64,000 nt of DNA from an uncultured Halanaerobiales bacterium (GTDB lineage: Bacteria; Bacillota; Halanaerobiia; B1SED10-174). The position numbers and the translations under genes were made by a program. Positions 18,471-49,004 of this stretch are shown piece by piece. The notes under the pieces were generated by a model. The model was not told the DNA's origin and made no database searches. It saw nothing but the letters and a program-made list of their open reading frames with translations. The stretch spans positions 11,089-75,088 of the forward strand of contig CAZMQU010000004.1 of NCBI GenBank assembly GCA_964568715.1. The letters run 5' to 3'. Each line of letters begins with the position of its first letter. Within the stretch, counting starts at the first letter, position 1.

Positions 18471-18696
18471 CATTAATTTACTTTTACCTTCAAAGGTAAG
18501 TCTATTTCAATTATCCAAAAAAGAAGTGATTAAGCGGAACTTACAATTAAACCCAAGGCTAAAAATATAGGAAACCAACTTGCAGGTGATGTTTTCCCTG
18601 TTTACCAATTACCGATGTGGGGACGGGAAGGTTTCCGGGGCGAAGATGATTTTCTGTTTTGAAATTCGGCAAAGTTTAATTCTTGTTTAGATGATT

Positions 18697-33175: not shown

Positions 33176-34873
33176 ATGGGGAGTTGTCCATTGGTTCTTG
33201 GAAGGGTGAGTGCTGTGAAAAAGAAAAAAAATACAACTATCCTGATCATTTTGTCTTTACTTATGGTCGTTTTTAATTTGTTGGGTGTTTCAGTAATTTA
33301 TGCTTCCCCACCGTCTGTTGCTTTGATTTTAGGCGGTGGTTCAGCCCGGGGTTTAAGCCACATAGGGATGATCGAAGCCTTTGAAGAAAATGGTATACCC
33401 ATCGATATGTTGTTGGGGACAAGTAGCGGGAGTATTATAGGGGGGCTATATGGGGCCGGATTTTCCATTGAAAACATGATTGATATTTGCACTAATTTGG
33501 ATATGCACTCCTTAATTGAGATTCCCTTGCCGCCCCGTGGTGGTTTTATTGATTCCGGGCGACTTAGATATTACTTGGACATTATATTGGAGGGGATAAC
33601 CCTCGAACAACTATCAATTCCTTTTTATCCGGGTGTTGTTGATTTAGGTACGGGTCGGGATGTTGCCTTGGACCAAGGTAAGCTTAGTGCCGGTATCCTG
33701 GCCAGTATTGCCATTCCCGGAGTTTTTCCGCCTGTGGAAGTTGGCGGCAATTATTATGTCGATGGTGGTTTAAAAAATCTGGTCCCGGCAAATCTGGCCT
33801 CTGCTTTGGGAGCAGATGTCATTATCGGCGTATCTATGGGGCAAGAAAACCGAGTTTATAAGGATCCCGAACACAAAAGTATTTATAACAATTTGCGAAA
33901 AACCATCAATGCGGTTATGGTGGGGTATTCTGCGGTTAACACTGCTGAAGCTGATGTTCTTTTTGTGCCTGACATTGACTTGACACACATATACGACTAT
34001 GAAAATGTTCTTTATTTTGTTGAACGCGGCTATCAAGCAGGCATTGACCACATGGACGAAATTAGGGCGGCTATCCTGGCCAGAGATCCCGATTTTGTGT
34101 TTAAGCCCTACAAGCAAAAGGGAATCAGCAGTGTTGATTTGGCCAACCGGATTGAAAAGGCGAAGCGTGAAACAGAAAAATTTCATGGCCCACTTACGGT
34201 TAAGCCCCTTTTGGGTTTTGATGATAATTACTACTTTTCAAAAATTGGTGCAAAGGTTACGGCCGGTCCTTTAAAACGCTTTGGAGTTGGTTACCGCTAC
34301 GGTTTTAACGACGATGAAGGAGGCCATGAATTATTTGTCGATTGGTCCCATCCCAAAATTGCCAATCTCGATACTTATTTTAGAAAAAGTCCTAAAAGAG
34401 AGAAGATCACTTGGGGCCTGGACCTCAATATTCCTTTATACAAGAAATTTGCCTTGGATGCTGCTTTTGTTACGCAGGGTTCTAATGCTTGGCATGTGGC
34501 AGTTAGAAATGAAGCTTTCCTAAATTTTCCCCATTTTAACGGCGGTTTGGCCTTAACTCTTAAGGGCCTGCGTTCAGAAGGGGGTAATCTCTCCAACGAA
34601 GGGAAGCTTTCCTTGAGTTTAAAACCACAGATAAAGATTTTGCCTTGGGGCGAAAAGTGGCTTCCCCTAGGGCCTTTCCCCCTTAAACCCTACTTCTTGG
34701 CTGCTGCCGAAATGGGAACTCCTTTGAATGATTTCTCATTGCAGACGACTTTTAAAGTCGGCTTGGGAACCGACTTCAGAATCTTGGGCTTATTCCCGGG
34801 TGAACTGTCGTTGAACGGTTATATAACAAATGAAGGTCAATTTTTTGGCCAGATTGGATTAAGAAGAAAATAA
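33176..34873 (+). CDS. Patatin-like phospholipase, a paralog of 23230..24852, with a C-terminal beta-rich domain
   Basis: Motifs ALILGGGSARG, GTSSGS and YVDGGLKN. The N-terminal signal-like segment is KKKKNTTILIILSLLMVVFNLLGVSVIYAS. The C-terminus aligns with its paralog (KVGLGTDFRILGLFPG against KTGMGLDFQLMGLYPG). The start is uncertain, with a GTG at about 33212 as an alternative. Confidence 0.8.
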   Translation: MGSCPLVLGRVSAVKKKKNTTILIILSLLMVVFNLLGVSVIYASPPSVALILGGGSARGLSHIGMIEAFEENGIPIDMLLGTSSGSIIGGLYGAGFSIENMIDICTNLDMHSLIEIPLPPRGGFIDSGRLRYYLDIILEGITLEQLSIPFYPGVVDLGTGRDVALDQGKLSAGILASIAIPGVFPPVEVGGNYYVDGGLKNLVPANLASALGADVIIGVSMGQENRVYKDPEHKSIYNNLRKTINAVMVGYSAVNTAEADVLFVPDIDLTHIYDYENVLYFVERGYQAGIDHMDEIRAAILARDPDFVFKPYKQKGISSVDLANRIEKAKRETEKFHGPLTVKPLLGFDDNYYFSKIGAKVTAGPLKRFGVGYRYGFNDDEGGHELFVDWSHPKIANLDTYFRKSPKREKITWGLDLNIPLYKKFALDAAFVTQGSNAWHVAVRNEAFLNFPHFNGGLALTLKGLRSEGGNLSNEGKLSLSLKPQIKILPWGEKWLPLGPFPLKPYFLAAAEMGTPLNDFSLQTTFKVGLGTDFRILGLFPGELSLNGYITNEGQFFGQIGLRRK

Positions 34874-34905
34874 TTTTTAAATGAATTTGAAAGAATGTTT
34901 TACTT

Positions 34906-34928
34906 GGGACCTTGAGGTCCCTTTTTTT
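34906..34928 (+). terminator. Rho-independent terminator (GGGACC-TTGA-GGTCCC followed by T7)
   Basis: A perfect 6-bp GC-rich stem with a 4-nt loop and TTTTTTT, 33 nt after the patatin stop. Confidence 0.7.
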
Positions 34929-34956
34929 ATGGTTGAAAAGATTGGGGTCCCTGTTA

Positions 34957-34985
34957 TTGGATTTTGTATTTTCATGTAGTATAAT
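34957..34985 (+). promoter_or_regulatory. Sigma-A-type promoter (TTGGAT-17-TATAAT) driving a leader of about 280 nt ahead of the lipoprotein/ECF locus
   Basis: The -35 hexamer is at 34957-34962 and the -10 at 34980-34985. The long leader (about 34990-35264) contains GC-rich paired segments (AGCCGGCCGGCA; GCCGGGGCAGGCAAGGCAATCGGCTC). Confidence 0.5.
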
Positions 34986-35264
34986 GGGGAAGGCAGCTTG
35001 AACAACACTTTTAATAAAGATATTTATGCCAAGAATAATAGCCGGCCGGCATTTACTTGCCTGAAATTTTTGAAAAATCGACCTCTGTATCTGTATTATG
35101 TATGAAAATATAAGCCGGGGCAGGCAAGGCAATCGGCTCTCATAAAAATTGTTTTTGATGGTACAAGTAAACATAGGATAATAGAAAATAATTAAAATAG
35201 CCAGAATTATTCTGATTGGATTGTTCACTGCCCTTGGACAATAATGCTTTAAAGGAGAGGGACA

Positions 35265-36380
35265 ATGGATAGAAGAAAGTTGTTTGTAATGGTTTTTGTT
35301 CTGGTTGCTGTTATTTTTACAGCTTGTGGAGGAAAGGGAACGGATTCAAAAACGATTGTTCCCACCCCGGAGAAAAACGAACTTGATCCCAATGCTGAGC
35401 TGGGGATTATTGGTGGCGGACTCAAGATAAACCTTAATGCGCAGGAGATGATGGCGCGTCCTCAAAAAACCTTCACCTGTAAAAATGTCAGTTCTTCAGG
35501 CGAAGTTGCCGAGGTAGAGGTAACAGGGTTTTCTTTGGATGAACTCTTGGCTGAACATGGTATTGCAATGGATAACATAATATCAATTAATTTTGTCGGT
35601 GATGACGGGTTTGTAATGGCTGCCCCGGCGGAGATATTTGCCGATACAGAAGTCTATATTATGTTGGAAAAGAACGGCGATGTGCTGGCTTATCCCACAA
35701 GCTGTATACCGGACCAGCGGGCTATGTATTGGGTTAGGGATCTGGTCAGAGTCGAAATTACAATGAAAGATTCGACTTTGGCGGCAAGAGAAAAATCAAT
35801 AAATAGAATCAGCATATTTAGAGAAGCTGTCGATGAACTTACCGCCGACCTGCTTGATAACCGGGGTACCAAGGTGGCTTCTTATTCATTGCAGGCTTAT
35901 TTTGAAAACTTTGCAACAAAGTTCCCCCAAAGACCGGTCACCATGATTGCCGGCGATGGGTTTAAAAAGACGGAGACTCCGGAAGTACTTTTGAAAGGAT
36001 TCGTTACATTGGAATCGGAACCGGGTCGTGAAGATGAATTGCCCCTTTACTTTTCGGAAGAGATGAACATTGGTATGCGGGTTAAGCAACTCGATGCAAT
36101 TATTGCGGAAGGGGAAGCGATTTATTTGGGAAGGGAAATATCGGTCGCTGATCTTTTTGCCCTAGTTGGGATGAAAGATGCGCCAAGTTACCGGTTTATT
36201 GCCGGTGATGGATATGTGACTGAGATTCCCCTTGCGGCTATATCTTTTGGCAAGATATTTATCGACGAAAATAAAGGCTATATGCGCGTTGAGTTTGAAG
36301 GTTATGATTTTACCGGAGTCGGCGGCCGCGGTATAGTTAAATATTTGACTTTTATAGAAGCAATTGAAGGAGATATGTAA
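35265..36380 (+). CDS. Lipoprotein built from repeated sulfite-oxidase/MsrP-like (Oxidored_molyb-fold-like) modules
   Basis: Lipobox IFTACGG. Module 1 is FTCKNVSSSGEVAEVEVTGFSLDELLAEHGIAMDNIISINFVGDDGFVMAAPAEIFADTEVYIMLEKNGDVLAYPTSCIPDQRAMYWVRDLVRVEI. It parallels the YedY/MsrP core (C...GFPLhkLL...G.......V.F...DGY...P.E.........NGEPL...G.P.RL.VP.....VKWL..I). Two more degenerate copies follow. Confidence 0.55.
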   Translation: MDRRKLFVMVFVLVAVIFTACGGKGTDSKTIVPTPEKNELDPNAELGIIGGGLKINLNAQEMMARPQKTFTCKNVSSSGEVAEVEVTGFSLDELLAEHGIAMDNIISINFVGDDGFVMAAPAEIFADTEVYIMLEKNGDVLAYPTSCIPDQRAMYWVRDLVRVEITMKDSTLAAREKSINRISIFREAVDELTADLLDNRGTKVASYSLQAYFENFATKFPQRPVTMIAGDGFKKTETPEVLLKGFVTLESEPGREDELPLYFSEEMNIGMRVKQLDAIIAEGEAIYLGREISVADLFALVGMKDAPSYRFIAGDGYVTEIPLAAISFGKIFIDENKGYMRVEFEGYDFTGVGGRGIVKYLTFIEAIEGDM

Positions 36381-36515
36381 GTCTCGAAATACAGAGAAAA
36401 TTCGGCAACAAGCAAGATTCTCAATGCCCGCTAATAGAAGGTTTGCTGCCGGATGTTGTACCTGTAAAAAGGGTGTCGGTTAGATACCGGTGTTTGCGTT
36501 AATGGGAGGTTCAAT

Positions 36516-37106
36516 GTGGCCATGCGGCATAAAGAAAAAAGCTTTCGCCGACAGCACTTTTCATTGGTCGATTACATTATAATTGCGATGTTGGCGGCTA
36601 TTGGAATTGCCATAAAAGTTGTTATTGTTCCTTTGGCTCATATCATTACCGGACCGCTCTTTATTCCCGGCGGTGTTTTGGCCGGTGGATTTTATATGAT
36701 GTTTTTGGTTATGGGTATGGCTTTGGTAAAAAAAAGGGGGGCTGCTTTTGCCGTCTCCCTAATTCAAGCTGTACTGGTGACAATTTCCGGAACCTTGGGT
36801 TCCCACGGGGCGGCGAGCATCATAACTTATACGGTTCCCGGCTTGGTTGTTGAGTTATGGTTTTTTATCAGTCGCCATAAAGGCTGTTGTACTTTCTGTT
36901 GTTTTGTAGGAGGAATGCTGGCCAATATGGCTGGCAGTTTTACGGTTAATTTAGCCATTTTCAACCTTCCTTTTGTACCCTTGATGCTGTCTCTTAGTGT
37001 CAGTGCATTATCGGGTGGCTTGGGGGGCTTGGTGGCCAATATGGTTGCCCGCAATGTAGAAAGGCTGGGAATTATAAAAAACAATGATAAAGAAAGTGAA
37101 GCTTAA
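36516..37106 (+). CDS. ECF-transporter substrate-specific (S) component-like membrane protein
   Basis: 196 aa with about 6 TM segments. ITGPLFIPGGVLAGGFYMMFLVMGMALVKKRGAAFAVSLIQAVLV is a pattern typical of S components. It sits next to an EcfA-EcfA'-EcfT module. Confidence 0.55.
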   Translation: MAMRHKEKSFRRQHFSLVDYIIIAMLAAIGIAIKVVIVPLAHIITGPLFIPGGVLAGGFYMMFLVMGMALVKKRGAAFAVSLIQAVLVTISGTLGSHGAASIITYTVPGLVVELWFFISRHKGCCTFCCFVGGMLANMAGSFTVNLAIFNLPFVPLMLSLSVSALSGGLGGLVANMVARNVERLGIIKNNDKESEA

Positions 37107-37138
37107 ATTATAGGTTCCTTTTAGGGAGGTAATTATTT

Positions 37139-38611
37139 ATGGGCCGCTATAGATATTGTTTTGGCAAGGCTTTAGCTCTTGTTAGCTGTATTGCAATTTT
37201 ATTTTCCGGTTGTGCAAAGGAGGATACCCCCCCTCTTATGGGTGCCAATTTGACTATTACCGGTGATGTGGAGAAAGAAATAATAATAAATAGTTACAAA
37301 GGTTATGATGCAGTAAAAATACAGGAGGGGGAACAAGAGAGAGATGTTATCCCTCTCTTACCTCTTTTGGAAGAGGCCGGCTTGACGGGCCAAGATAATG
37401 TAATATTTTTATCCTCCCCCGATGGGGCCTTGGCGGGCATTCCCTGCCGTGAAATTGACGAAGAATGTTGGCTCCGATTAAGCAGTGAGTTTGGATGGGA
37501 ATTCATTTCACTCAATCACCCTCGCCAAGTTGGGATAAAGTTTATGGATTACATAGTTATTGCTGCTCAAGAACCGGGAAACAAAGCTCCTTGCTTGCGT
37601 TTTATCGAAGAAGGGGAGGAGAAGACCCTTACCTACGGTCAGCTTTTTGCTATGGACAGTATCAGCCGCCTGGTCTTTGAAGGGCAAGCAATGAAGGGAG
37701 ATTATTCCGCCGGTGTTTATCGGCGTCGTAATCTGGTGCCGGTCGGTCGTTTTTTTACAAAGGCCATAGAGGACCGTTATCAAAAGGGTTTAGCTTATTT
37801 TGCCGACGGTAGCCAAGAAGAGATTTCGTGGCAGGGTTTCTTGGAATGGCGGGGCAGTTCGGCTGATTATATTGGTCCCGACAGTAAGAGTCGCAAGAAA
37901 GATATTATCGGCATATGGGCGGGTGCACCGGTGTTGGCTGTTACCGATTTGGCGCCAAAAGCCCTGTCTTCTTTGGTAAACAATCGAGTTCTGATTATTC
38001 TTTTGGATGGATTGAGTTACTATGATCTGAAAATTATTAAGCCCGCCTTTTTGGGGGAGAAAACAACTATGGCGGCGAGAACGGTAATGCCTTCCATTAC
38101 TCCGGTGGCCTTGGCTTCAATAGTAACCGGTGAATATCCTGATAAAACGGGTGTTAAGTCAAGAGATGACAGGGAATTGCATCTGGAAGATATGTTTGTT
38201 GCTGCTGAATATATGGGCAAAACTGCAGCCATGATTGGCGGTTCTACCCAAGTTATAAATGTCGGAATAGGGCAAATATTAAATCCCGATTTGAATGGCA
38301 ACGATTCAACCGATGATGAAGTATTCATTGCAGCCGTCGAGGAATTGAAGGCCGGGCGGGATTTGACCTTTGTTCACTTTCACGGTTACGATGATGTTGC
38401 TCATACGTACGGCCCCCTTTCACCCCAAGCCCTTCAAAAAATGATTGAGCTGGATGGGTACATTGAGCAACTATGTATGAGCTTTGCCGGTAAAGTATAT
38501 ATTATTGCTGATCATGGGCAACATGCTACCTCCGGAGATAAGCTAGGTGATCATGGTGAATTTAGGGCTTTGGATATGACGGTACCCTGGGTGGAATTTG
38601 AGATTGAATAA
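37139..38611 (+). CDS. Lipoprotein with an N-terminal sulfite-oxidase-like module fused to a C-terminal type-I phosphodiesterase / nucleotide pyrophosphatase (NPP, AlkP-superfamily) domain
   Basis: Lipobox LFSGCAKED. The N-terminal module is LTITGDVEKEI...VIPLLPLLEEAGLTGQDNVIFLSSPDGALAGIPCREIDEECWL...GIKFMDYIVI. The NPP motifs are VLIILLDGLSYYDL (metal site), TVMPSITPVALASIVTGEYPDKTGV (nucleophile region, compare NPP [20 protein letters not shown]), FVHFHGYDDVAHTYGP and IADHGQH. Confidence 0.7.
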   Translation: MGRYRYCFGKALALVSCIAILFSGCAKEDTPPLMGANLTITGDVEKEIIINSYKGYDAVKIQEGEQERDVIPLLPLLEEAGLTGQDNVIFLSSPDGALAGIPCREIDEECWLRLSSEFGWEFISLNHPRQVGIKFMDYIVIAAQEPGNKAPCLRFIEEGEEKTLTYGQLFAMDSISRLVFEGQAMKGDYSAGVYRRRNLVPVGRFFTKAIEDRYQKGLAYFADGSQEEISWQGFLEWRGSSADYIGPDSKSRKKDIIGIWAGAPVLAVTDLAPKALSSLVNNRVLIILLDGLSYYDLKIIKPAFLGEKTTMAARTVMPSITPVALASIVTGEYPDKTGVKSRDDRELHLEDMFVAAEYMGKTAAMIGGSTQVINVGIGQILNPDLNGNDSTDDEVFIAAVEELKAGRDLTFVHFHGYDDVAHTYGPLSPQALQKMIELDGYIEQLCMSFAGKVYIIADHGQHATSGDKLGDHGEFRALDMTVPWVEFEIE

Positions 38612-38825
38612 CAGTATTGCAGTCCGATATTTGGCGGATACCGAGGGGCTATCTTCCGGTTAGGGGAAAGATTCGTGCGGGTTGCATTTTGAGCCGGACC
38701 GGGCCATGGATTCAGAGCATCAACAAGTTGGACAGCCGGTGAAGACTGATTCCGGCGGTAAACTATTCCGGCATAGAGCGGCGATTATCTTTGTCGGACA
38801 AAATAAAGTCGGGAGGTACGGGATA

Positions 38826-39380
38826 ATGGTCAAAAACAATGACAAAGGGATAAAATACAACGACAAACGAATGAAAATAATTATTGCTATCGTTGTAGCA
38901 TTACTTGTTTTGGTGATAACAGTTTTAGCATATCTGAATGCAGGTGATATCGAAAGAAAGAAAGATTTGGAGATGCGGGCGGAATTCATTATCAGGCAAA
39001 ATAGCCGGGAGCAACGGCTTACCATGCAAGATATTTTGGATTTGGACCCGGTTGATTTCGAGACGGTAAAAAGAACAAGCACCAGCGAACCTACCCCGGT
39101 CACCTTTACCGGCGTTGATTTTAGTAAATTGTTTCTTGCCTACGGATTTGAAATAGACAATAGTTCTACAGTTCAAGTAATGTCGCTGGATGGTTACGCA
39201 TCGGCGATTTCAGGTCAGGAAATTCTTAGCGGTGACAATGTCTATCTCTGTATTTACATGGATGGTGAACCGATGAAGACTAAGCAAGAAGGTGGTTTCG
39301 GGCCATACCTCATGGTTATAAAAAATGACCGTTTTGCCCAAAGATGGTGTAAATTTGTGGAGGTAATTACAATTAAATGA
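38826..39380 (+). CDS. Membrane-anchored extracytoplasmic protein with a sulfite-oxidase-like module
   Basis: The start was chosen at the ATG at 38826, which has GGGAGGT 7 nt upstream. The TM anchor is MKIIIAIVVALLVLVITVLAYL. The module is PVTFTGVDFSKLFLAYGFEIDNSSTVQVMSLDGYASAISGQEILSGDNVYLCIYMDGEPMKTKQEGGFGPYLMVIKNDRFAQRWCKFVEVITIK. It parallels the MsrP C-terminal half (...MNGEPL...HG.P.RLVVP...G...VKWL..I). Confidence 0.55.
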   Translation: MVKNNDKGIKYNDKRMKIIIAIVVALLVLVITVLAYLNAGDIERKKDLEMRAEFIIRQNSREQRLTMQDILDLDPVDFETVKRTSTSEPTPVTFTGVDFSKLFLAYGFEIDNSSTVQVMSLDGYASAISGQEILSGDNVYLCIYMDGEPMKTKQEGGFGPYLMVIKNDRFAQRWCKFVEVITIK

Positions 39381-40051
39381 TAGTACTCGAAGGGCGTAAC
39401 ATCGATTTTCATTATTTTCCTGATAAGCTATTATTGCGACAGGCTAATATCCATGTTAAAAAAGGTGAATGTGTTGCCCTTATCGGCTCTTCGGGTTGCG
39501 GAAAAACAACTCTATGCTATATTTTGGCAGGTATTATTCCTCGTTCTATTAAGGGGGACTTAACAGGAGAAGTATTTCTTTCCGGTCGCAATATTGTTGA
39601 TTTGCCCCTTGCTGATCTTGTCAGGCAGGTTGGTATTGTTTTTCAAGATCCCGAGTCGCAATTGTTTTCTCCAACGGTGGAAGATGAGATTGCTTTTGGG
39701 CCGGAAAATCTTTGTTTGCCAAGGGAGGAAATTGATAAAAGAATTGAAGAAGCCCTTCGTTTGGTGGGGATGGAAGAACACCGGAGGGCGGATACCCAGA
39801 CGCTTTCCTATGGGCAAAAGCAACTTATTGCAATAGCGGCTGTTCTGGCCTTACAACCGCAAACATTGATATTGGATGAAATTTTTTCCCATTTGGATTT
39901 TGATTCTGCTGAAAGGATAAAAAGGCTTATATTGGGCCAAAAAAAGGCCGGCAAGGCAATTCTTCTGACCGGACATGGGCAAGACTATATTGATTTAGCA
40001 GACCGTGTTTATCAAATAGAAAAGGCCGAGGTTGAGGAGATTTATTTATGA
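39377..40051 (+). CDS. ecfA: ECF transporter ATPase component EcfA
   Basis: Walker A motif GSSGCGKTT, signature LSYGQKQLIAIA, and Walker B motif LILDE. It overlaps its neighbours, which indicates translational coupling. Confidence 0.85.
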   Translation: MIVLEGRNIDFHYFPDKLLLRQANIHVKKGECVALIGSSGCGKTTLCYILAGIIPRSIKGDLTGEVFLSGRNIVDLPLADLVRQVGIVFQDPESQLFSPTVEDEIAFGPENLCLPREEIDKRIEEALRLVGMEEHRRADTQTLSYGQKQLIAIAAVLALQPQTLILDEIFSHLDFDSAERIKRLILGQKKAGKAILLTGHGQDYIDLADRVYQIEKAEVEEIYL

Positions 40052-40704
40052 CGGTAGCAGTTGGACTAAAGGGTGTAAGATATAAGTATCCCCGTAGCAA
40101 TTTTGAAATTAAATTTGATAATCTCGAGTTCCTGATGGGTCGGGTTACCCTTATAAGCGGACCTAACGGTAGCGGTAAAACGACACTTTCTAAATTGATG
40201 TGCGGAATTCTAAAACCACAAAGAGGAAAGCTTGAAATCTTCGGCAACTTGGCCAATGATTGGCCCCTGGGTTTGATTGGCGAGCATATAGGTTATCTTT
40301 TTCAAGAGCCCTCCCGCCAGCTGTTTGCTACAACTGTTTGGCAGGAGATGACTTTCATAGCCGGGATATTGGGGTGGGATTGTGACAACGTCGGTCGAAA
40401 AGCTCGGGAGCTACTTATTCGTTTCGATCTTTTCCATCTTAAGGACCGCACCATTTTTCACTTAAGTAGGGGAGAGAGACAAAGGTTGGCTATTTGTACG
40501 GTGCTTATGAATGGGGCTAAATTCCTGATTTTAGACGAACCGACGACAGGCTTGGACCAAAAAAACCGGGAACATCTTTACAGTTTAATAGATGGGATGG
40601 TTGCCGAAGGTAAGGGTATAGCTCTAATATCTCACGAAAAGGAACTTATTTCCCGTTACGGGAAGAACACGATTGAGGTTATAAATGGGAGGGTCCTGGT
40701 TTGA
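40048..40704 (+). CDS. ecfA2: ECF transporter ATPase component EcfA'
   Basis: Walker A motif GPNGSGKTT, signature LSRGERQRLAIC, and Walker B motif FLILDEP. Confidence 0.85.
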   Translation: MTVAVGLKGVRYKYPRSNFEIKFDNLEFLMGRVTLISGPNGSGKTTLSKLMCGILKPQRGKLEIFGNLANDWPLGLIGEHIGYLFQEPSRQLFATTVWQEMTFIAGILGWDCDNVGRKARELLIRFDLFHLKDRTIFHLSRGERQRLAICTVLMNGAKFLILDEPTTGLDQKNREHLYSLIDGMVAEGKGIALISHEKELISRYGKNTIEVINGRVLV

Positions 40705-41432
40705 GAAAAGCAGATCCAAGAGTAAAACTTTTTTGGACGTTAATCTGTACAACCGGGGCCTTGATTTTTTCCAGGCCCGGCTGGATGTTGGGTTTGAGTA
40801 TCTTCACCTTATGCGGTGCTGTTATTTGGGGTAGCGATATGAAGGCTTTTCTATATCGATTTAAGAAAGTTCTACCCTTGCTGGTCTTGGTGGCCTTGGT
40901 CCAAATTGTTTTTGTCCGCTCCGGCCAGCCTCTTTTGGTCTATAAAGATTTTATCCTGGTGAGTAAGGTTGGCTTAATAAGAGGTTTAGGTACAGCAATG
41001 CGGTTTTTTATTATCTTAGCCAGTTCTTCGGTTATGGCCGGTGAGAATAATCGGCGCGTCATTGCAGCCCTTACAAATGTGGGAATGCCCTATTTATTTT
41101 CTTTCCTGCTCATGACCGCCTTGCGCTTTTTACCTTTTTTTAGCTCCTCTTTCGAAGATGCCTTAGTGGCAATACAGTTACGCGGCATACAACCCAAGAC
41201 TTTGCCTTGGCAAAAAAGAATCAGCTTATATGGCAATTTGGTTTTACCTGTAGTGGCGGATGCTGTTGCCAAGGCACAAAATCTGGCTATGGCCATGGAA
41301 GCCAGAGGCTTTGGCGCGATGAAGCAACGAACCTCCTATATAGCTGTTCAAATGACAGTTATGGACTGGCTGCTTTTTAGCGGACTTCTTGTTTTGAGTT
41401 TTTGGGCTCTTTTGAAATATTTTTCAATTTGA
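40701..41432 (+). CDS. ecfT: ECF transporter transmembrane (T) component EcfT/CbiQ family
   Basis: 243 aa with about 5 TM segments. The conserved C-terminal Ala-Arg-Gly motif is AMEARGFG. Confidence 0.8.
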   Translation: MRKADPRVKLFWTLICTTGALIFSRPGWMLGLSIFTLCGAVIWGSDMKAFLYRFKKVLPLLVLVALVQIVFVRSGQPLLVYKDFILVSKVGLIRGLGTAMRFFIILASSSVMAGENNRRVIAALTNVGMPYLFSFLLMTALRFLPFFSSSFEDALVAIQLRGIQPKTLPWQKRISLYGNLVLPVVADAVAKAQNLAMAMEARGFGAMKQRTSYIAVQMTVMDWLLFSGLLVLSFWALLKYFSI

Positions 41433-41478
41433 GATTTTTAAAAAAATTTAAGATAAAATGCTGCAGGGAGGGGTGACT

Positions 41479-42231
41479 ATGAAAGCAATAGCTATAAACG
41501 GAACTTCCAATTCGGGGAAGACAACAGTGTCTAAGGCCATTATTCGAGGCTTGCGTCACAGAGGGTATAGGGTCGGGTCGGTTAAAGAGATTCACCATGA
41601 AGATTTCACAATAGATCCCGATAGTGAGGTTGATACAAGACTTCATAAAGCGGCAGGATCACAGTTGGTTACAGCCCGAGCTCCCCGGGAGACCGATATT
41701 CTCCATCAGCGCAAATTAACTGTTGAAGAAATTCTCCGCTTCTATGATCATGATTTTGTTATTTTGGAGGGGGTGGCTGATTGTAACGCGCCGCGAATTA
41801 TAACCGCCCATAACGAGGTGGAGATTGCTGAGCGGATAGACGGTAGGGCCATTGCTGTATCGGGTGTCTTGGCCAATAATGCAAGCGGTGAAATTTTGGG
41901 TATGCCAATATTTAATGTTCTCAAGGATGCGGAAGCATTGGTGGACTTTGTTGAAGACCGTGCTTTCGAGCCTCTGCCTTCCTTTGATGCAAACTGTTGC
42001 TCTCACTGCGGTTACAGTTGTCGGGAAATGGCCGGTATGATTGCATGGCAGAGGGCCAAAAGGGAGGATTGTGTTCTTTATGCGCAGGCAACGGAATTGA
42101 TTATAGATGGCGAGCCTGTGCCAATGGTGCCCTTTGTACAAAGTATTTTAAAAAATGCTGTATTGGGAGTGGCCAAGGAGTTGCAAGGTTTCAAAGGTAA
42201 GGGGAAAATTGAAGTCAGGTTTGAGATATGA
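41479..42231 (+). CDS. MobB-like P-loop GTPase domain with a Cys-rich C-terminal extension
   Basis: The N-terminus MKAIAINGTSNSGKTTVSKAIIRGLRHRGYRVGSVKEIHH resembles MobB (M.IxIxGxSGSGKTTL...G..V..IKH). The extra C-terminal region carries CCSHCGYSC and a further Cys. The start was chosen at the ATG at 41479, which has GGGAGGGG 6 nt upstream. Confidence 0.55.
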   Translation: MKAIAINGTSNSGKTTVSKAIIRGLRHRGYRVGSVKEIHHEDFTIDPDSEVDTRLHKAAGSQLVTARAPRETDILHQRKLTVEEILRFYDHDFVILEGVADCNAPRIITAHNEVEIAERIDGRAIAVSGVLANNASGEILGMPIFNVLKDAEALVDFVEDRAFEPLPSFDANCCSHCGYSCREMAGMIAWQRAKREDCVLYAQATELIIDGEPVPMVPFVQSILKNAVLGVAKELQGFKGKGKIEVRFEI

Positions 42232-42833
42232 GATTTAAATCGAAGAAAAACCTTGTTTTTCTGGAAAACGGGGTTGTAGTAAAAGAATTTAAAGATGAGG
42301 CGGCACTGAAGCGTGAAGCAGAAACCTTGCTTGCCCTTAAGGCTGCCGGTTTAGCGGTCCCCTCTTTATTGAACAAGGAGGGAAAGAGATTATTCCTTGA
42401 ATATATTCCCGGCGAGACTTATGAAGCCTTGGTAGAGGAGATGGACTTTGAAAAGGCTGATTCCTTGGCCCGATGGTTGGTTGATTACCATCGAATTACG
42501 AATTCTTTGCGGGGCGATGTGAACCTGCACAATTTTATATGGAGCAAGGCCGGCTGTCTAGGGGTAGACTTCGAGGAAGTACCCCAAAAGGGAGAAGGGG
42601 AGACGGATATGGGTAGGATAGTCGCTTTTGCAGTAACCTATTCTCCTGCTTTTTCCCCCGGGAAATTGGTCGGGGGAGGACTTTTTCTGACGGCTTTTTT
42701 GAAAAGAGGTGGCAGAAAAGATAAAATCCGCCAAGCATATCTGGAGGAAATAATTGCAATGAATCAACGGAGGTCTGCATTTTGGCTGACTAAGAAAGAG
42801 GCCCTTGAGTTCTTTGATTGTTTGGTTACTTGA
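42228..42833 (+). CDS. Small protein-kinase-like (Kdo/RIO/APH-type) fold protein
   Basis: 201 aa. It has a candidate catalytic loop, GDVNLHNFIW (compare HGDLHEYNIL), and a beta-rich N-terminus with a conserved Lys context (VVVKEFKDE). This is a weak call by eye. Confidence 0.4.
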   Translation: MRFKSKKNLVFLENGVVVKEFKDEAALKREAETLLALKAAGLAVPSLLNKEGKRLFLEYIPGETYEALVEEMDFEKADSLARWLVDYHRITNSLRGDVNLHNFIWSKAGCLGVDFEEVPQKGEGETDMGRIVAFAVTYSPAFSPGKLVGGGLFLTAFLKRGGRKDKIRQAYLEEIIAMNQRRSAFWLTKKEALEFFDCLVT

Positions 42834-43123
42834 AATCAAAAGCCGGAGCGCGGGTAAAAAGATCTGTAAATTCTTTTGTTAACCCAAGGCTGCCAAAAAA
42901 CAGGAATTTACTTCGATAAAACTTACCGGATTTCCCGAATTTGCCCTAGAAAAGCTTTACTTTTAAATCTCTTTGCAGTATCATAAATATTGGAGTAAAA
43001 AATCTGATATTTTTTGCCTAACGGTCCAAAATTATCTGCTTAAATGGGGTGGTTGGAACCGTTGTTAAGTTCTTGTTGAACATAACGGTTGTTATAAAAG
43101 TAATATATGGAGGTGTATTCGTA

Positions 43124-43630
43124 ATGGTCGTAAATGGAAAAGTAACTTGCAATACTACAGCGACAGACGTACTCGAACAGGTTGCAACAATTGCAGCCAG
43201 ATGGAGAGACAGGCCTGATATGATTATTCCTGTTCTCCACGAGGTACAGACAATTGCCGGTAATGGCTTACCAAAGGACGTAGTCGATGTAGTATCCCGT
43301 GAAATGAGGGTTCCCCTGTCGGATATATACGGCGTGGAAACCTTTTATTCTTTCTTTTCGACGCAAAAACGGGGAAAAACAGTGATTAGACTATGCAAAA
43401 GTGCCCCTTGCCATGTAAAGGGCAGTAAAAAGGTCTTGGAAGCCTTTGAGAAAGTTTTAGGAATCAAGGCCGGCGAGACTACTGAAGACGGAGATTTTAC
43501 TCTCGAAACCTGCGAATGCATTGGTGCTTGTGATGTTTCTCCGGCAGCACTTATCGACGGCGTTGTTTATGGTGACTTAACTCCTGAAAAAGTAGAAAAA
43601 CTAATAACCACACTTAGGAAAAAGGAGTGA
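43124..43630 (+). CDS. NADH-dehydrogenase 24-kDa-subunit-like [2Fe-2S] protein (NuoE/HoxE/FdsG family)
   Basis: A thioredoxin-like 2Fe-2S motif spans CKSAPCHVKG...CIGACDVSPA. The start was set at the ATG at 43124, which has GGAGGTG 8 nt upstream. Confidence 0.85.
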   Translation: MVVNGKVTCNTTATDVLEQVATIAARWRDRPDMIIPVLHEVQTIAGNGLPKDVVDVVSREMRVPLSDIYGVETFYSFFSTQKRGKTVIRLCKSAPCHVKGSKKVLEAFEKVLGIKAGETTEDGDFTLETCECIGACDVSPAALIDGVVYGDLTPEKVEKLITTLRKKE

Positions 43631-43634
43631 AAAC

Positions 43635-44894
43635 ATGGAAGAAATGAGAATTCTACTGGATAAGGCGGGGGAGATATCTCCTATTAGTGCGAAAGAGTAT
43701 GCCGATGTCGGTGGCTATGAAGGCTTAAAAAAAGCTTTGCAAGCACCTGAAAAAATTGTTGATGTCATTAAGGCCTCCGGTGTCCGTGGTCGTGGTGGAG
43801 CAGGTTTCCCGGCCGGATTGAAGTTGTCTTTTACGGCCAATACGCCGGCTGATCAAAAGTACATCGTGTGCAACGCTGATGAGGGCGAACCCGGAACCAA
43901 TAAAGACCGGGTAATAATGGAGCAAGTACCCCACCGCCTTTTGGAAGGTATGGCCATTGCGGGTTTGGCGGTAGGCGCCAGCAAAGGTTACATTTACTTA
44001 CGAGCGGAGTATCCTTATGTAGCGACTATCTTAGCGGATGCCCTTGCCGATGCCCGTGCCAATGGTTATTTGGGTGAAAATATTTTAAACAGTGGTTTTG
44101 ATTTTGATGTAGAGCTTTTTATCGGTGCAGGGGCTTATGTTTGTGGTGAAGAAACTGCTTTGTTGAATTCAATGGAAGGCAAAAGGGGAGAATCAAGGTT
44201 TAAGCCCCCATACCCCGGTGTTGAAGGTCTATGGGGTAAGCCAACGGTGGTCAATAATGTGGAGACCCTAACCAACTTTCCCGTGATTATGGTAAAAGGG
44301 GCTGAGTGGTATAGAAAAATCGGAACTGAAACATGCCCCGGTACAAAATTGTTTACCTTAAGCGGTAACATCTCTAATCCCGGTGTCTATGAGTTCCCCG
44401 TAGGTACGACGATTCGCAGCCTTTTTGAAGAGGTTGGCGGCGGTTGCCCGAATGGTAAAAAGCTTTATGCTGTCCAGACCGGAGGAGCTTCGGGTAATAT
44501 AATTCCTGCTTCCTTATTGGATACCCCCATGGATGTCGATTGTTGTGCTGAAGTTGGTGCCACCTTTGGTGCGGGGGACTTGATGTTCATCGATGAAGAC
44601 AATTGCTTGTTGGATGTATTGGAGAATTTGATGGAGTTTTTTGCCCATGAGTCTTGTGGTAAATGCACTCCCTGCCGGGAAGGTAATGTCCAGCTATTGG
44701 GGCTTATTAGGAAATTTAAAGCCGGAACCGCCGAGGAAGGCGATTTGGACTTGATGGTTGAGTTGGCCAATTTTATGGTAGAGGGAAGCCTCTGCGGTTT
44801 AGGTCAAGCTTCGCCGAACCCAATTTTATCGGCAGTCCGTTTTTTCCCGGCAATATTCACATTAAAAAACGAATCTAAAGGGAGGGTTAGCTAA
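43635..44894 (+). CDS. NADH-binding 51-kDa-subunit-like flavoprotein (NuoF/HoxF/FdsB family; FMN, NAD(H), 4Fe-4S)
   Basis: Glycine-rich NADH/FMN motifs GRGGAGFPAG and GAGAYVCGEETALLNSMEG. The 4Fe-4S motif is ESCGKCTPCREG. Confidence 0.9.
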   Translation: MEEMRILLDKAGEISPISAKEYADVGGYEGLKKALQAPEKIVDVIKASGVRGRGGAGFPAGLKLSFTANTPADQKYIVCNADEGEPGTNKDRVIMEQVPHRLLEGMAIAGLAVGASKGYIYLRAEYPYVATILADALADARANGYLGENILNSGFDFDVELFIGAGAYVCGEETALLNSMEGKRGESRFKPPYPGVEGLWGKPTVVNNVETLTNFPVIMVKGAEWYRKIGTETCPGTKLFTLSGNISNPGVYEFPVGTTIRSLFEEVGGGCPNGKKLYAVQTGGASGNIIPASLLDTPMDVDCCAEVGATFGAGDLMFIDEDNCLLDVLENLMEFFAHESCGKCTPCREGNVQLLGLIRKFKAGTAEEGDLDLMVELANFMVEGSLCGLGQASPNPILSAVRFFPAIFTLKNESKGRVS

Positions 44895-47569
44895 TGATAA
44901 AGGTTGTTATTGACGGTCAGCCTCTGGAGGTAGAAAAAGGTACTACAATTCTTGAAGCCTGCCAAAAGCTGGGTATTGAAATCCCAACCCTTTGCCACTA
45001 CAACCACCTTGCTCCGGAGGGGTCTTGCCGGATTTGCGTTGTAGAAGTTAAAGGAACAAAAGATTTGCAGGTTTCTTGTGCCACTCCTTGTGCAGAGGGC
45101 ATGGAAGTGACTACTATGAACGAAAGAATTTACACTTTTAGGAAAATGATCATTGAGTTGCTTTTGGCCAACCATGATACAGATTGTTTTTCCTGCCCTG
45201 CCGTAGGTGAGTGTGAATTATATCGGTATGCCGTAGAGTATGGTGTTGAGGAAACAAGGTTTCCCAGGACAAAAGAAATTGAACCCAAAGACCTTTCCAA
45301 CGAATTTTTTGAATATGATCCTTCCAAATGTATTTTGTGTCGTAGGTGCGTACGTGTATGCAATGAATTACAAAGCAACCGTACCCTCAGCCTAAAGAAC
45401 AGGGGCGTAGACACAGCTGTTAGTATACCATTTGATGAGCTTTTTGTTGACAGTAATTGCGTATCTTGTGGAAACTGCGTTTCAGTTTGTCCTACAGGTG
45501 CACTTACAACTAAAGCCAGTAAAAAATATCGCTCTTGGGAGGTAACCAAGACCAGAACGACTTGTCCATACTGTGGTGTTGGCTGCCAATTGGACTTGCT
45601 TGTAAAAGACGACAAGGTTGTTGGTGTTGAACCGGCTGACGGACCGGCAAACCATGGTCTTCTTTGCGTCAAGGGAAAATTTGCTTATGATTTTATAAAT
45701 CATCCTGATCGCCTGACGACTCCTTTGATAAGGAAGGACGGAGTTTTGACCCCGGCAAGCTGGGATGAGGCACTCGATTATGCAGTGAAAGGGATTAAAA
45801 AGGTAAGGGAGGAGAGCGGTCCCGATGCAATCGCCGGTTTTTCTTCCTCCCGGGCAACCAACGAGGATAATTATACTTTTATGAAGATGATGAGGGCGGC
45901 AATCGGTACCAACAATGTCGATAACTGTGCCCGTGTCTGACACGCTCCTACAGTGGCTGGTCTAGCCACAACATTAGGTAGCGGAGCAATGACAAACTCC
46001 ATTTCCGAGTTGGTCGATGCTGAAGTAATCTTTATTATCGGTTCCAATCCCACCGAGGCACATCCGGTTATCGGTGCTCAGATTAGACAGGCCCGCAATC
46101 GTGGTGCCAAGCTGATTGTAATCGATCCAAGGGTAATTGACTTAGCTGAAGAGGCAGAAATCCATCTGCGTATTAAACCGGGAACCAACGTTGCCTTCTT
46201 AAACGGCCTCATGAATGTTATCATTGAAAAAGGCCTTTTAGATAAAGAATACGTTGAAAACAAAACCGAGGGATTTGAAGAGTTAAAAGAAACAGTAAAA
46301 GATTATACCCCCGAAAGCGTGGCGGAAATATGTGGGATAAATCCTGATGACCTGGAAAGGGTTGCCAGATTGTATGCGCCGGCTGAAAGGGCGCCCATTG
46401 TATACTGCCTGGGTGTGACCGAGCATTCAACAGGAACTACCGGTGTTATGTCGGTAGCCAACTTGGCCCTTCTTTGCGGTAAAGTTGGTAAGTATGCTTG
46501 TGGAGTTAATCCCTTGCGGGGACAAAATAATGTGCAAGGTGCTTGTGACATGGGATGTATGCCTTCCGATTATTCCGGTTACCAGAAGGTTGCCAACCCC
46601 GAAGCCAGGGCCAAGTTTGAAAAACTATGGGGAACGAAATTGCCCTCCAATCCCGGCTTAACAAGTACCGATGCTATGAATGCAGCAGCTAAGGGCGATG
46701 TACGTTGCTTGTATATATTTGGAGAAAACCCCATGGTCAGTGATCCCAACCTTAGCAATGTCCAAAAAGCTTTAACCAAGGCTGACTTTGTGATAGTACA
46801 AGATATTTTCTTGACGGAAACAGCAGAATTTGCCGATGTAGTCTTGCCTGCAACAAGCTATGCCGAAAAAGAGGGAACTTTCACAAACAGTGAGAGAAGG
46901 CTCCAGAGGGTTCGGCCTGCTGTTAGCCCAAGGGGTGAGAGTCGTGACGATTGGGCGATTTTCTCCGAAATAATGCATCGTCTTGGTTATGACAACAAAT
47001 TCACCTCTGCCAAAGAAGTATTGGATGAAATTGCTGAGGTAACACCTTCTTATGGTGGCTATAGTTTCGAGCGATTGGAACGGGAGCAGCCCCAATGGCC
47101 TTGCCCAACTCCGGACCATCCCGGAACACCTATTCTTCATGTTGGTAAGTTTGCCAGAGGTGAGCGGGCAATTTTCAAACCGTCTCCCTATGTGCCTTCT
47201 GCGGAACTACCTGATGAAGAGTATCCATTGATATTTTCCACCGGAAGGCTCTTGTATCAATACCATACCACTACCATGACGGGTAGAAGTGAAGGTATTG
47301 CCAATTTGGCCGGCAAACCTTTCGTCGAAATCAACCCGGCCGATGCATCTAAACAGGATATTGTTGATGGTGGAAGGGTAAAGATTGCCTCCCGCCGTGG
47401 AGAAATAGAAGTTGATGCCCGTGTTACGGAGCGGGTTCCTGAAGGCGTTCTTTATATGCCTTTCCACTGGGCAGAAGGGGCGGCCAACTGGTTGACCAGT
47501 GAAGCCTTGTGTCCCATTGCCAAAACACCCGAGTATAAAGTTTGTGCTGCCAAAGTACAAAGGGCTTAA
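44894..47569 (+). CDS. fdhA: Formate dehydrogenase catalytic subunit with an N-terminal NuoG-like 2Fe-2S/4Fe-4S extension. It is a selenoprotein, with in-frame UGA-Sec at 45938-45940.
   Basis: ORFs 44894..45940 and 45953..47569 share a frame and are separated only by TGA. The joined sequence reads NCARV-U-HAPTVAGL. The E. coli FdhH Sec motif is CARVUHGPSV. The N-terminus has the 2Fe-2S motif CHYNHLAPEGSCRIC and two CxxCxxCxxxCP ferredoxin motifs. A long molybdopterin-oxidoreductase body follows. Confidence 0.9.
45953..45969 (+). promoter_or_regulatory. Candidate SECIS hairpin 13 nt downstream of the fdhA UGA (GUGGCU-GGUCU-AGCCAC)
   Basis: A 6-bp stem with a GGU-containing apical loop, positioned as bacterial SECIS elements are. 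The full element is probably longer. Confidence 0.45.
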
Positions 47570-47579
47570 AAAAGAAAAT

Positions 47580-48192
47580 GGCTTGCGATGATATCCGGGA
47601 TTTTAATAGCGCAGTTATCCTCGCCGGTGGTCGCTCCACTCGGATGGGTTTCGATAAGCAACTTCTGTCGATTGATGGGAAAAGGATAGTACAGAAGCAC
47701 ATTGACCTTTTAAAAACCCGTTTTGGGGATATCATGGTGTCCAGCTATACTCCCGAATTATACGAAATGGAGCAGGTTAGGGTTATCTCGGATGTATATG
47801 AAGATGTGGGGCCATTGGGTGGTATCCATTCTGCTTTGGTTAATGCCCAAAGCAATGCCGTTTTCCTGATTGCTTGCGATATGCCACTCTTAAGCCTTGA
47901 CTACATTGATTATATGGTTTCTCGCATGAAGGGGCAGAAAGTAGATGCCTGTGTAACAAGATACAGGCATCACCTGGAGTTTTTCCATGCATTTTTTTGC
48001 AAGTCGGCCCTACCCCTTTTGGAAGAACAACTCGATGCAGGGCAATATTCAGTGAAAAACCTGGTAAAAAAACTTAATGCCCTCATTATTGCGGAAAAGG
48101 ATGCGCAGCCTTATACGAAGGATTGGTCAATATTTACGAGTTTGAATACTCTGAATGAATACAATGCCTATATAAACAAAACAATTAGCTAG
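47580..48192 (+). CDS. mobA: Molybdenum cofactor guanylyltransferase MobA
   Basis: AVILAGGRSTRMGFDKQLL matches the MobA N-terminal GGxSxRMG motif. LIACDMPLL is also present. The start was set at the ATG at 47580. The ORF-track start at 47542 would overlap fdhA. Confidence 0.8.
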
Positions 48193-48260
48193 AAAAAGAC
48201 GATCGGTGCCTTTAACCGGGTTCCGGTCGTCTCCTTTTAAATGCTAGGAGAGGGTGGAAG

Positions 48261-49004
48261 GTGGAGGTTTTTAAGGGAATCGAAATTACAAAAATTGAAG
48301 GCTGTCAAAGTGAAACTGTTATTGATAATGTTGTTGTGGAGTTCAATTTGGAAATTTATTTGAACTGTTCTTTTCTTGTTCGACTTGTTTGTACGCCCCG
48401 TGATCTGGAAGCATTGGTTTACGGCCATCTTTTTGCCCGAGGGATTATCAAGACTCTCGATGACATAGAATCTCTCTCCATTGCAGATGCTAAGGCGCAG
48501 GTTTTCTTGAAGCAAGAAACTTTTCCAAAGGAAAACAGCCCTAAAATAGATTTTAGCGATCCTTTATCGGAAAGGGCGGCCGCTGATTCGAAGGATGTAT
48601 TCCTAAGTCCAGAGGAACTATTTGCTGCCTTGGCATCTTTGGATGCCAATTCGCCTCTTTTTACCGCTACAGGGGGTGTCCACGGTTGTCTTTTGGCCAA
48701 CATCGATGGAAAGCAACTCTTTACCGAAGATTTGGGGCGGCATAATGCGATTGATAAGGTTTTGGGACGAGCATTAATGGCTGGCTGGGATCTGACGGGG
48801 GCTTATTTGGTAACGGGGGCCAGGATTGCTGAGAGCTTGTTGGGCAAAGCCCTCAACAGTGGCCTACCGCTTATAGTATCCCGCTCGGCGCCGACCGTAG
48901 AAGCAGTGAAGATGGCCCGAAAATACAATCTGACATTATGCGGTTTTGCGCGGGGTCGCCGCATGAACATATACAGTGGGTTGCAACGAATAAAAAATAT
49001 TTAA
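48261..49004 (+). CDS. fdhD: Formate dehydrogenase accessory sulfurtransferase FdhD
   Basis: The conserved FdhD C-terminal region is TATGGVHGCLLA...LGRHNAIDKVLG...LVTGARIAESLLGKALNSGLPLIVSRSAPT. Confidence 0.85.
   Translation: MEVFKGIEITKIEGCQSETVIDNVVVEFNLEIYLNCSFLVRLVCTPRDLEALVYGHLFARGIIKTLDDIESLSIADAKAQVFLKQETFPKENSPKIDFSDPLSERAAADSKDVFLSPEELFAALASLDANSPLFTATGGVHGCLLANIDGKQLFTEDLGRHNAIDKVLGRALMAGWDLTGAYLVTGARIAESLLGKALNSGLPLIVSRSAPTVEAVKMARKYNLTLCGFARGRRMNIYSGLQRIKNI

Follow-up and report, generated by a model that had tools for sequence, protein, structure and literature searches.

The DNA analysed here, a stretch of 64,000 nucleotides from an uncultured Halanaerobiales bacterium (contig CAZMQU010000004.1; hereafter the window), carries nine consecutive open reading frames (ORFs), all on the plus strand, that join a transporter of the energy-coupling factor (ECF) type to exported proteins of the sulfite oxidase (SUOX) fold and to two cytoplasmic proteins, one of them related to MobB. 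In order, they encode a lipoprotein of sulfite-oxidase-like modules (SOL1), an ECF S component, a second lipoprotein in which such a module is fused to a phosphoesterase core of the nucleotide pyrophosphatase/phosphodiesterase (NPP) type (SOL/NPP), a membrane-anchored single module (SOL4), the ATPases EcfA and EcfA', the coupling protein EcfT, a MobB-type protein with a cysteine-rich domain (MobB-FeS) and a small kinase. This order is the one proposed in a preliminary description of the window made from its sequence, and an independent gene caller recovered these genes too, on an identical contig from a metagenome. The operon's 5' boundary is marked by the intrinsic terminator of an upstream patatin-like gene (34906..34930, plus strand; GGGACCTTGAGGTCCC followed by a T run), after which come the leader and promoter region (34931..35264, plus strand), with a long hairpin at about 35057-35128 and no recognisable riboswitch. 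We consider the operon the best candidate so far for bacterial scavenging of the tungsten (W) or molybdenum (Mo) cofactor or of a pterin precursor.

The transporter genes bear out the preliminary assignments one by one. The S component (36516..37106, plus strand; gene-caller start 36522) matches PF09819 (YkoE-type; E 4.5e-16), a family best known for a member tied to thiamine or hydroxymethylpyrimidine (HMP); some of its 753 relatives carry the JGI name ABC-type thiamin/hydroxymethylpyrimidine transport permease, and a structure search returned no solved relative. EcfA (39377..40051, plus strand) and EcfA' (40048..40704, plus strand) are separate genes matching PF00005 (E 1.4e-26 and E 1.3e-28); their best NCBIfam matches, ECF_ATPase_1 (E 2.2e-52) for the former and ECF_ATPase_2, alongside cbiO, for the latter, fall below the equivalog cut-offs. 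EcfT (40701..41432, plus strand), the transmembrane coupling component, matches PF02361 (E 1.4e-22) and TIGR02454 (E 8e-20). Since the window and more than 50 related loci have the S gene next to those for A, A' and T, the locus encodes a dedicated group I ECF transporter, presumably an importer.

Between and ahead of the transporter genes lie those for the sulfite-oxidase-like proteins, for which the fold named in the preliminary description stands and the classical cofactor site does not. SOL1 (35265..36380, plus strand; lipobox IFTAC) has one clear PruR-like module (about residues 45-167) and, after it, two more that are degenerate and carry a DG motif. SOL/NPP (490 amino acids; 37139..38611, plus strand; lipobox LFSGC) begins with a PruR-like SUOX module at about residues 35-145, and SOL4 (38826..39380, plus strand) is a single PruR-like module behind an N-terminal transmembrane helix. 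Unlike the SUOX enzymes, the window proteins score below the PF00174 (Oxidored_molyb) cut-off of 24 bits (SOL1 15 bits, SOL4 22.6 bits). The fold assignment is nevertheless solid, because several of their relatives pass that threshold and profile–profile comparison with hhalign links the SOL4 family both to SOL1 (98.3%, E 1.6e-14) and to the N-terminal module of SOL/NPP (92.4%, E 5e-7); the modules have the fold of the SUOX domain that holds the molybdenum cofactor (Moco).

A PDB-wide search with the SOL4-family profile gave meaningful matches only to PruR (7kom, E 7e-4, then 7kos/7kou and 7rkb), which also superposes most closely in structure (1.9 Å over 122 of 146 residues). PruR of Proteobacteria (PDB 7kos, 7kou, 7kom, 7rkb, 7kp2; Greenwich et al. 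2024, PMC11194511) is a small, periplasmic, non-enzymatic pterin binder with a degenerate SUOX fold, in which the cysteine hairpin is truncated and the Mo-ligating cysteine replaced. Tyr104 and Trp160 sandwich the pterin ring, to which Asn102 forms a hydrogen bond (A. tumefaciens numbering), and pterin binding has been shown experimentally, the PruR-type structures binding tetrahydromonapterin or neopterin (PMC11194511). By sequence alignment, D122-G-Y124 of SOL4 corresponds to N102-D-Y104 of PruR, and an invariant W174 near the SOL4 C terminus may, from its spacing, be the counterpart of PruR W160; the stacking Tyr and a C-terminal Trp would thus be kept, with Asp in place of Asn102. The PW motif of PruR is absent from the SOL4 family, which has T/S-rich residues and no Cys at the position aligned with the Mo-ligand Cys; the Mo-hairpin region is shortened in the modules, as in PruR. 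The preliminary description had placed a cysteine of SOL1 at the Mo-ligating position, a claim that we do not sustain: Cys72 is not conserved in the SOL1 family and lies 7 residues before the position aligned with the ligand Cys and with PruR W70.

In lacking both a conserved Cys ligand and a full Moco hairpin the modules differ from sulfite oxidase, SorA and YedY/MsrP; they differ too in that SUOX enzymes are exported by Tat as cofactor-loaded enzymes, whereas most family members here carry Sec-type lipoprotein or anchor signals. Since the Cys hairpin is lacking and PruR is the closest relative, the modules are best read from their sequences as PruR-like degenerate SUOX folds that would bind a pterin, rather than as classical Moco sites; on the same grounds we rejected, as the main explanation, that they are true extracytoplasmic Mo enzymes. 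PruR acts in signalling with a DcpA-type c-di-GMP enzyme as its partner, whereas the modules here occur in a transporter operon of Firmicutes, repeated and fused to an enzyme. Neither in the window nor among the genes that recur beside the operon in related loci was a DcpA-type partner (a periplasmic domain joined to GGDEF/EAL or to TorS/BaeS) found, and the ligand, judged from the regulation described below, is probably of the molybdopterin type.

The enzyme in question forms the C-terminal part of SOL/NPP, in which a beta-rich middle domain (about residues 150-270) leads into a minimal NPP/alkaline-phosphatase core (about residues 275-490). As the preliminary description had recognised, this is an NPP-type domain: it exceeds the gathering score of PF01663 (E 4.9e-14, residues 284-468) and has the alkaline phosphatase core fold. 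Across the family D290, D418, D458, H459 and H472 do not vary, T321 is replaced, if at all, by S, and 28 of 32 sequences have H422. These positions align with D54, T90, D210, H214, D257 and H258 of the Xanthomonas (Xac) NPP. With the Asp/His bimetal ligands and the Thr/Ser nucleophile of the bacterial NPP/PhnA/PafA clade (Xanthomonas NPP, 2gsn; PhnA, 1ei6) thus kept, the core is very likely to be catalytically active, as far as conserved residues can predict. It differs from that clade in its size, about 215 residues that lack the inserts giving the nucleotide pocket of NPPs its shape, and in its fusion partners, a SUOX-like module and, in a few genomes, the S component. The monoesterases PafA and PhoK score nearly as well against it, and in so minimal a core, without specificity inserts, the sequence is compatible with either diesterase or monoesterase action. 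Locus L005 encodes the S component and the SOL/NPP protein as a single fusion (protein P0010), and P0086 and P0088 are further PF09819–PF01663 fusions by Pfam; the joining of a phosphoesterase to a substrate-binding S component suggests that processing precedes uptake.

On the cytoplasmic side, the MobB-type P-loop NTPase (41479..42231, plus strand) and the small kinase (42228..42833, plus strand) are core components of the system, not bystanders, and both were noted in the preliminary description. The former matches PF03205 (E 1.7e-17; 64 bits against a cut-off of 26.6), TIGR00176 (80.6 bits against 76.2) and the MobB structure 2f1r (E 2.5e-9). Its C-terminal cysteine-rich domain, a probable 4Fe-4S site, matches PF04060 weakly (16 bits), and the best NCBIfam match of the whole protein is the MobB/FeS fusion model NF011064 (PRK14494 group), at 140 bits below the cut-off of 418. 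Both the Walker A motif and a CCx2Cx3Cx16C motif are conserved in 56 sequences. The kinase has weak matches to APH, RIO1 and Bud32 and aligns with Rio2 in the PDB (E 1.6e-3) over a span that includes the catalytic loop, with K19, E30, D97, N102 and D114 invariant in 47 sequences. Because their catalytic motifs are kept, both proteins appear to be active, and the 4-nt overlap of the kinase start with the MobB-FeS stop suggests translational coupling.

A scan of one genome per species, in which the window proteins were mapped and all ORFs clustered, yielded 80 related loci (numbered with an L below; ORF calling in them was crude). The entire cluster, from SOL1 through the S component, SOL/NPP, SOL4, EcfA, EcfA', EcfT and MobB-FeS to the small kinase, is conserved in about 55-65 of them, which answers the preliminary question of whether SUOX-like genes keep company with ECF and MobB genes across genomes: together with the NPP domain, they form one operon. 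NPP occurs in 78 of the 80, the ATPases in 65, SOL4 in 64, EcfT in 59, MobB-FeS in 55, the S component in 52, SOL1 in 50 and the kinase in 46; only these nine families are common to most of the loci, the next commonest being present in 11. A profile search of 1.84 billion representatives returned 319 clusters at E <= 1e-30. The hosts include Christensenellaceae, Oscillospiraceae, Lachnospiraceae, Halanaerobiales, Peptococcaceae, Limnochordia, Sedimentibacter, Gudongella and Dethiosulfatibacter, and the operon is present in the cultured Clostridium aceticum, Proteinivorax hydrogeniformans, Dethiosulfatibacter aminovorans and Sedimentibacter hydroxybenzoicus. Natronincola ferrireducens has a close relative of the S component. 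Metagenome-assembled genomes from digesters and a Natronincola sp. are the nearest relatives.

Outside the nine core families, a small FMN_bind lipoprotein lies within the operon in 12-14 loci, in several as its first gene. Genes for aldehyde oxidoreductase (AOR) and for ThiF/MoeB-like proteins each neighbour the operon in 9 loci, those for formate dehydrogenase (FDH) in 6 and for TupAB-like transporters in 2-3, and ThiS/MoaD-like genes also occur. The Moco-biosynthesis genes seen among the recurrent neighbours are the ThiF/MoeB-like and ThiS/MoaD-like genes, which stand beside AOR, and a single MoeA gene, in the C. aceticum locus. No ApbE was seen among the neighbour genes scanned against Pfam, a scan that was not exhaustive.

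Two variants depart from the common layout. In Sedimentibacter hydroxybenzoicus (L053, 765-17245), and likewise in L046, L056, L064 and L065, an extended operon of about 16 genes stands behind one riboswitch and encodes two proteins with multiple SUOX modules anchored by S-layer homology (SLH) domains, a SUOX lipoprotein, a 525-residue SOL1, the ECF/NPP/MobB/kinase core, a protein joining a NapH-like polyferredoxin to FMN_bind and another joining an FAD reductase to FMN_bind; a rubrerythrin gene lies mid-operon on the opposite strand. The Anaerolineae (L066, L077, L078 and L081) have a distant, reduced variant with a protein bearing the NPP core, a family of about 310 amino acids without a Pfam match, TupAB-like genes, ECF genes whose S component is weakly related, and full or partial matches, rich in GC, to our Moco riboswitch model.

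For regulation, the preliminary description had pointed to the leader as a place where a riboswitch, for instance of the Moco class, might lie; the window's own leader fails to provide one and its orthologues do provide it. Two Rfam scans by E-value found nothing credible at 34874-35264, and our own Moco model, run with filters off, reached at best 9.4 bits there; relatives that, like the window, have FDH genes alongside (L003, L006-L008 and L022) gave no match to that model. By contrast, in 14 of the 16 distinct loci scanned, RF01055, the family of the molybdenum and tungsten cofactor (Moco/Tuco) riboswitches, immediately precedes the operon, at 48-78 bits against a gathering cut-off of 36, with C. 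aceticum, Proteinivorax and the related L004 and L005 among them (8178-8292 and 3068-3187, respectively, before the operon, and in L005 also 11613-11735 before FDH genes). When we searched the 80 loci with a covariance model built from six of these matches (its E-values are rough, although Rfam confirmed every re-tested locus), 43 matches had E < 0.01, and at least 32 loci have one just ahead of the operon's first gene. It is thus the orthologues, and not the window, that supply the regulatory evidence.

The form of these elements suggests both the ligand and the direction of control. In every RF01055 alignment shown the P3 hairpin is absent, and the P3-less class goes almost without exception with the metabolism of the tungsten cofactor (Regulski et al. 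2008, PMC2408646), an indication that this cofactor is the ligand. In 22 of 30 operon-linked riboswitches a separate hairpin with a U-tract follows the aptamer, and in 19 of these 22 the 5' arm of the terminator is complementary to the conserved 3' strand of the aptamer, an OFF layout; two more of the 30 have the Shine-Dalgarno sequence inside P1. The riboswitch of the TupA-like tungstate transporter of C. aceticum is built in the same way. The complementarity thus predicts a ligand-induced OFF design, and several of the neighbouring AOR, TupABC-like and FDH genes bear an RF01055 element of their own. As genes of the W/Mo regulon that the cofactor represses are those of biosynthesis or uptake, the operon is a cofactor-repressed member on the supply side of the W/Mo-cofactor regulon.

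Several further riboswitches were seen near the operons. The AOR leaders (L016, L018, L021, L023, L029 and L048) have the same P3-less element with different-looking expression platforms and an ambiguous ON/OFF logic; in that of L048 the terminator 5' arm overlaps the P1 3' strand, suggesting an ON design. In C. aceticum (L083, JYHU01000003.1, 16149-20567) two further transporter operons come right after the operon, each with a P3-less RF01055: a TupA/TupB-like tungstate ATP-binding cassette (ABC) system (riboswitch 18676-18800, minus strand) and a Peripla_BP_2/FecCD ABC transporter of siderophore/B12 type (19017-19136, plus strand), which could carry chelated W or Mo or another form of the cofactor. 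L012 has a second RF01055 (16408-16525, minus strand; 55.9 bits) before a lone SOL4-like gene that lies a few kb from its main operon and on the opposite strand. Unrelated classes also occur: a c-di-AMP riboswitch in L027 (15735-15864, 87 bits) and a cobalamin riboswitch in L083 (2743-2943, 129 bits), neither of which precedes the operon, and a thiamine pyrophosphate (TPP) riboswitch in L036 (3597-3705, minus strand, 68 bits), 4.4 kb from the operon and on the other strand.

Taken together, we favour the reading that this is an ECF importer which scavenges a pyranopterin cofactor or its precursor within the W/Mo-cofactor regulon, and assign it, substrate and direction included, a probability of roughly 0.55; that it constitutes the first bacterial salvage pathway for a pyranopterin (Mo/W) cofactor or pterin precursor, under feedback by a tungsten-cofactor riboswitch, is a more tentative proposition, to which we give slightly worse than even odds. 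In such a pathway the membrane-tethered SUOX modules of SOL1, SOL4 and SOL/NPP would capture an extracellular compound of the pyranopterin type, be it Moco/Tuco, molybdopterin, its GMP or CMP dinucleotide, or a pterin precursor. The fused NPP/alkaline-phosphatase domain would remove the nucleotide, the phosphate or both beside the S component, and the PF09819 protein with EcfAA'T would import the product. Inside, the small RIO/Bud32-like kinase may re-phosphorylate and so trap it, and the MobB-[4Fe-4S] NTPase may return it to cofactor maturation (MoeA, MobA; enzymes such as AOR and FDH). The cofactor itself would shut off expression through the P3-less Moco-class riboswitch, an element presumably lost in the window's clade. 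By analogy, the layout would be that of classical vitamin salvage, with dephosphorylation outside, import, and re-phosphorylation inside. Of the cofactor-uptake idea in the preliminary description, then, the linkage of the genes in one operon and a Moco-class riboswitch in orthologues speak strongly for its core, and Moco-site modules, a riboswitch in the window itself and a general involvement of MobA and FDH fall away. The family of SUOX-like modules and the NPP domain were recovered by profile search, their genes do travel with those of the ECF transporter, and nothing turned up that the description had named as grounds for abandoning the idea.

Set against known systems, the operon resembles the group I ECF importers (YkoEDC for thiamine precursors, BioMNY, CbiMNQO) in encoding S, T and two ATPases together and, in most relatives, in standing under a riboswitch for an end-product cofactor that represses it. 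ECF transporters normally need no extracytoplasmic binding proteins, whereas here there are three SUOX-fold proteins, and these, the NPP phosphoesterase, MobB-FeS and the small kinase have no counterpart in the known systems. The riboswitch class is different as well, being Moco/Tuco; a 2013 RegPrecise survey of RNA regulons listed no coenzyme transporter under a Moco riboswitch (PMC3766115). According to a 2021 review Moco cannot be taken up, with C. elegans the only known case (PMC9026282). That dietary uptake is eukaryotic, concerns protein-bound Moco and proceeds by a transporter that is not known (PMC9026282), and no bacterial counterpart has been described; a 2026 review considers the passage of pterins across membranes unexplained (PMC13259868). 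We found no description of this operon in the literature searched in full text. It thus belongs to the ECF class, in which its regulon, its probable class of substrate and its accessory machinery are without precedent.

Several observations weigh against a scavenging importer. The family of its S component, PF09819, has thiamine and HMP as the link of its best-known member. The pocket of PruR is truncated and binds small non-Moco pterins (PMC11194511), which makes binding of the full dithiolene-metal cofactor uncertain, and the free cofactor is chemically labile (PMC9026282). Molybdopterin appears to be made by some hosts on their own, which have MoaD/ThiS-like and ThiF/MoeB-like genes beside AOR or, in C. 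aceticum, MoeA, so that salvage would be supplementary there. The OFF logic is read from sequence complementarity, and the window's operon is itself without a riboswitch. Finally, simple import needs neither the FMN_bind redox modules of many operons nor the NapH-like protein of one clade; together with the SLH-SUOX proteins, these partners suggest either redox chemistry outside the cytoplasm, which might serve to maintain the pterin in its reduced state, or a role in a redox enzyme.

That last point leads to the alternative that survives best, though we judge it unlikely: that the ECF transporter and MobB-FeS send a cofactor (Moco/Tuco, or a flavin or pterin) outward, and that the NPP domain processes it or transfers it into Sec-exported SUOX-like redox enzymes fed by FMN_bind/NapH-like carriers. 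Besides the FMN_bind lipoprotein, it would account for the SLH-SUOX, NapH-like and FAD-reductase-FMN_bind proteins of the Sedimentibacter and Gudongella operons, and it has a precedent in Listeria, where FAD export is reported to depend on an ECF transporter (RibU/FmnA) and to be coupled to extracytosolic flavinylation of the ApbE type (PMC9973259), so that ECF transport is likewise linked to extracytoplasmic redox proteins. The Listeria system differs from ours, which shows no ApbE-like gene among the Pfam-scanned neighbours (the scan, as said, not being exhaustive), an OFF-type Moco/Tuco riboswitch and binder-like modules. Modules without a Mo-ligating Cys or an extended hairpin, most like the non-enzymatic PruR, are poor candidates for exported redox enzymes; repression by the cofactor, in a layout shared with a TupA-like transporter, fits supply rather than consumption; and the fusions of phosphoesterase to S component suggest processing before uptake. 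Import is more likely than export of the Listeria kind.

A somewhat less probable proposal is that the operon acquires the metal, importing W or Mo as an oxyanion, a thio-anion or an organic complex that the phosphatase-like and SUOX-like sites would handle. Sites of the alkaline phosphatase superfamily do bind tungstate, molybdate and vanadate as phosphate analogues, and the P3-less class and the AOR neighbours point to tungsten. Moco-class riboswitches, moreover, commonly control molybdate and tungstate transporters (PMC2408646; PMC3766115). In C. aceticum, however, a TupABC-like transporter with its own riboswitch adjoins the operon, which would make a second plain tungstate importer redundant, and it is not obvious what the pterin-type modules, the kinase and the MobB-type protein would do in the uptake of a metal. 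We know of no ECF S component for oxyanions.

Doubtful, in turn, is the uptake or sensing of a pterin unrelated to Moco, such as neopterin or monapterin of the folate branch or a product of folate breakdown. The closest solved relatives of the modules do bind tetrahydromonapterin or neopterin, yet the operon is controlled by the Moco/Tuco riboswitch and not by a tetrahydrofolate riboswitch, a MobB-type protein belongs to its core, and its neighbours are W/Mo enzymes and tungstate transport rather than folate genes. An ordinary YkoE-type thiamine/HMP transporter, or one for another known vitamin, set by chance beside Mo-related genes is very improbable and was rejected, for all that PF09819 and the JGI permease names recommend it: no TPP riboswitch was found upstream of the operon in the window or the 16 Rfam-scanned loci, RF01055 leading instead, and the two ATPase genes are separate, whereas YkoEDC has both a TPP riboswitch and the YkoD ATPase, which is of the fused type.

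Downstream of the operon the window encodes, as the preliminary description stated, a selenocysteine-containing FDH with MobA and FdhD. The NAD-linked enzyme, assigned by Pfam, comprises NuoE-like, NuoF-like and FdhA proteins (43049..47569, plus strand); FdhA (44894-47569) is split by an in-frame TGA at 45938-45940, read through as selenocysteine, and a selenocysteine insertion sequence lies at 45935-45993 (SECIS_3, 54.6 bits, E 2.5e-10, slightly below the Rfam cut-off of 63). MobA and FdhD follow at 47542..49004 on the plus strand (MobA to 48192, NCBIfam E 3.7e-36; FdhD 48261-49004, PF02634). Because an obvious terminator is absent between the kinase gene and the FDH genes, the latter are possibly co-transcribed with the ECF operon. 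The suggestion that this set is part of the system in general had to be dropped, since it adjoins the operon only in the window's clade (6-7 loci), 5 other loci having MobA next to it and 1 having FdhD; being clade-confined, it makes re-guanylylation by MobA for FDH no general feature of the system. On the 5' side lie two patatin-like phospholipases, a protein with an ATLF (anthrax-lethal-factor-like) metalloprotease domain and a B12-binding radical SAM protein (23230-24852, 29934-31376, 31721-33046 and 33176-34873); other loci showed no connection between these genes and the operon.

If the operon does scavenge a pyranopterin, the textbook view that Moco and Tuco are acquired only by de novo synthesis would be overturned for anaerobic Firmicutes, and cross-feeding of the cofactor would be expected in digesters, sediments and guts. 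It would also give MobB, whose role has long been debated, a testable function, extend a function for PruR-like modules beyond Proteobacteria, and define a new ECF architecture in which external capture modules are combined with an on-board processing enzyme. Proteins that stabilise or move the cofactor would be of medical interest in relation to Moco deficiency, and the presence of the system in cultured species makes the question directly testable.

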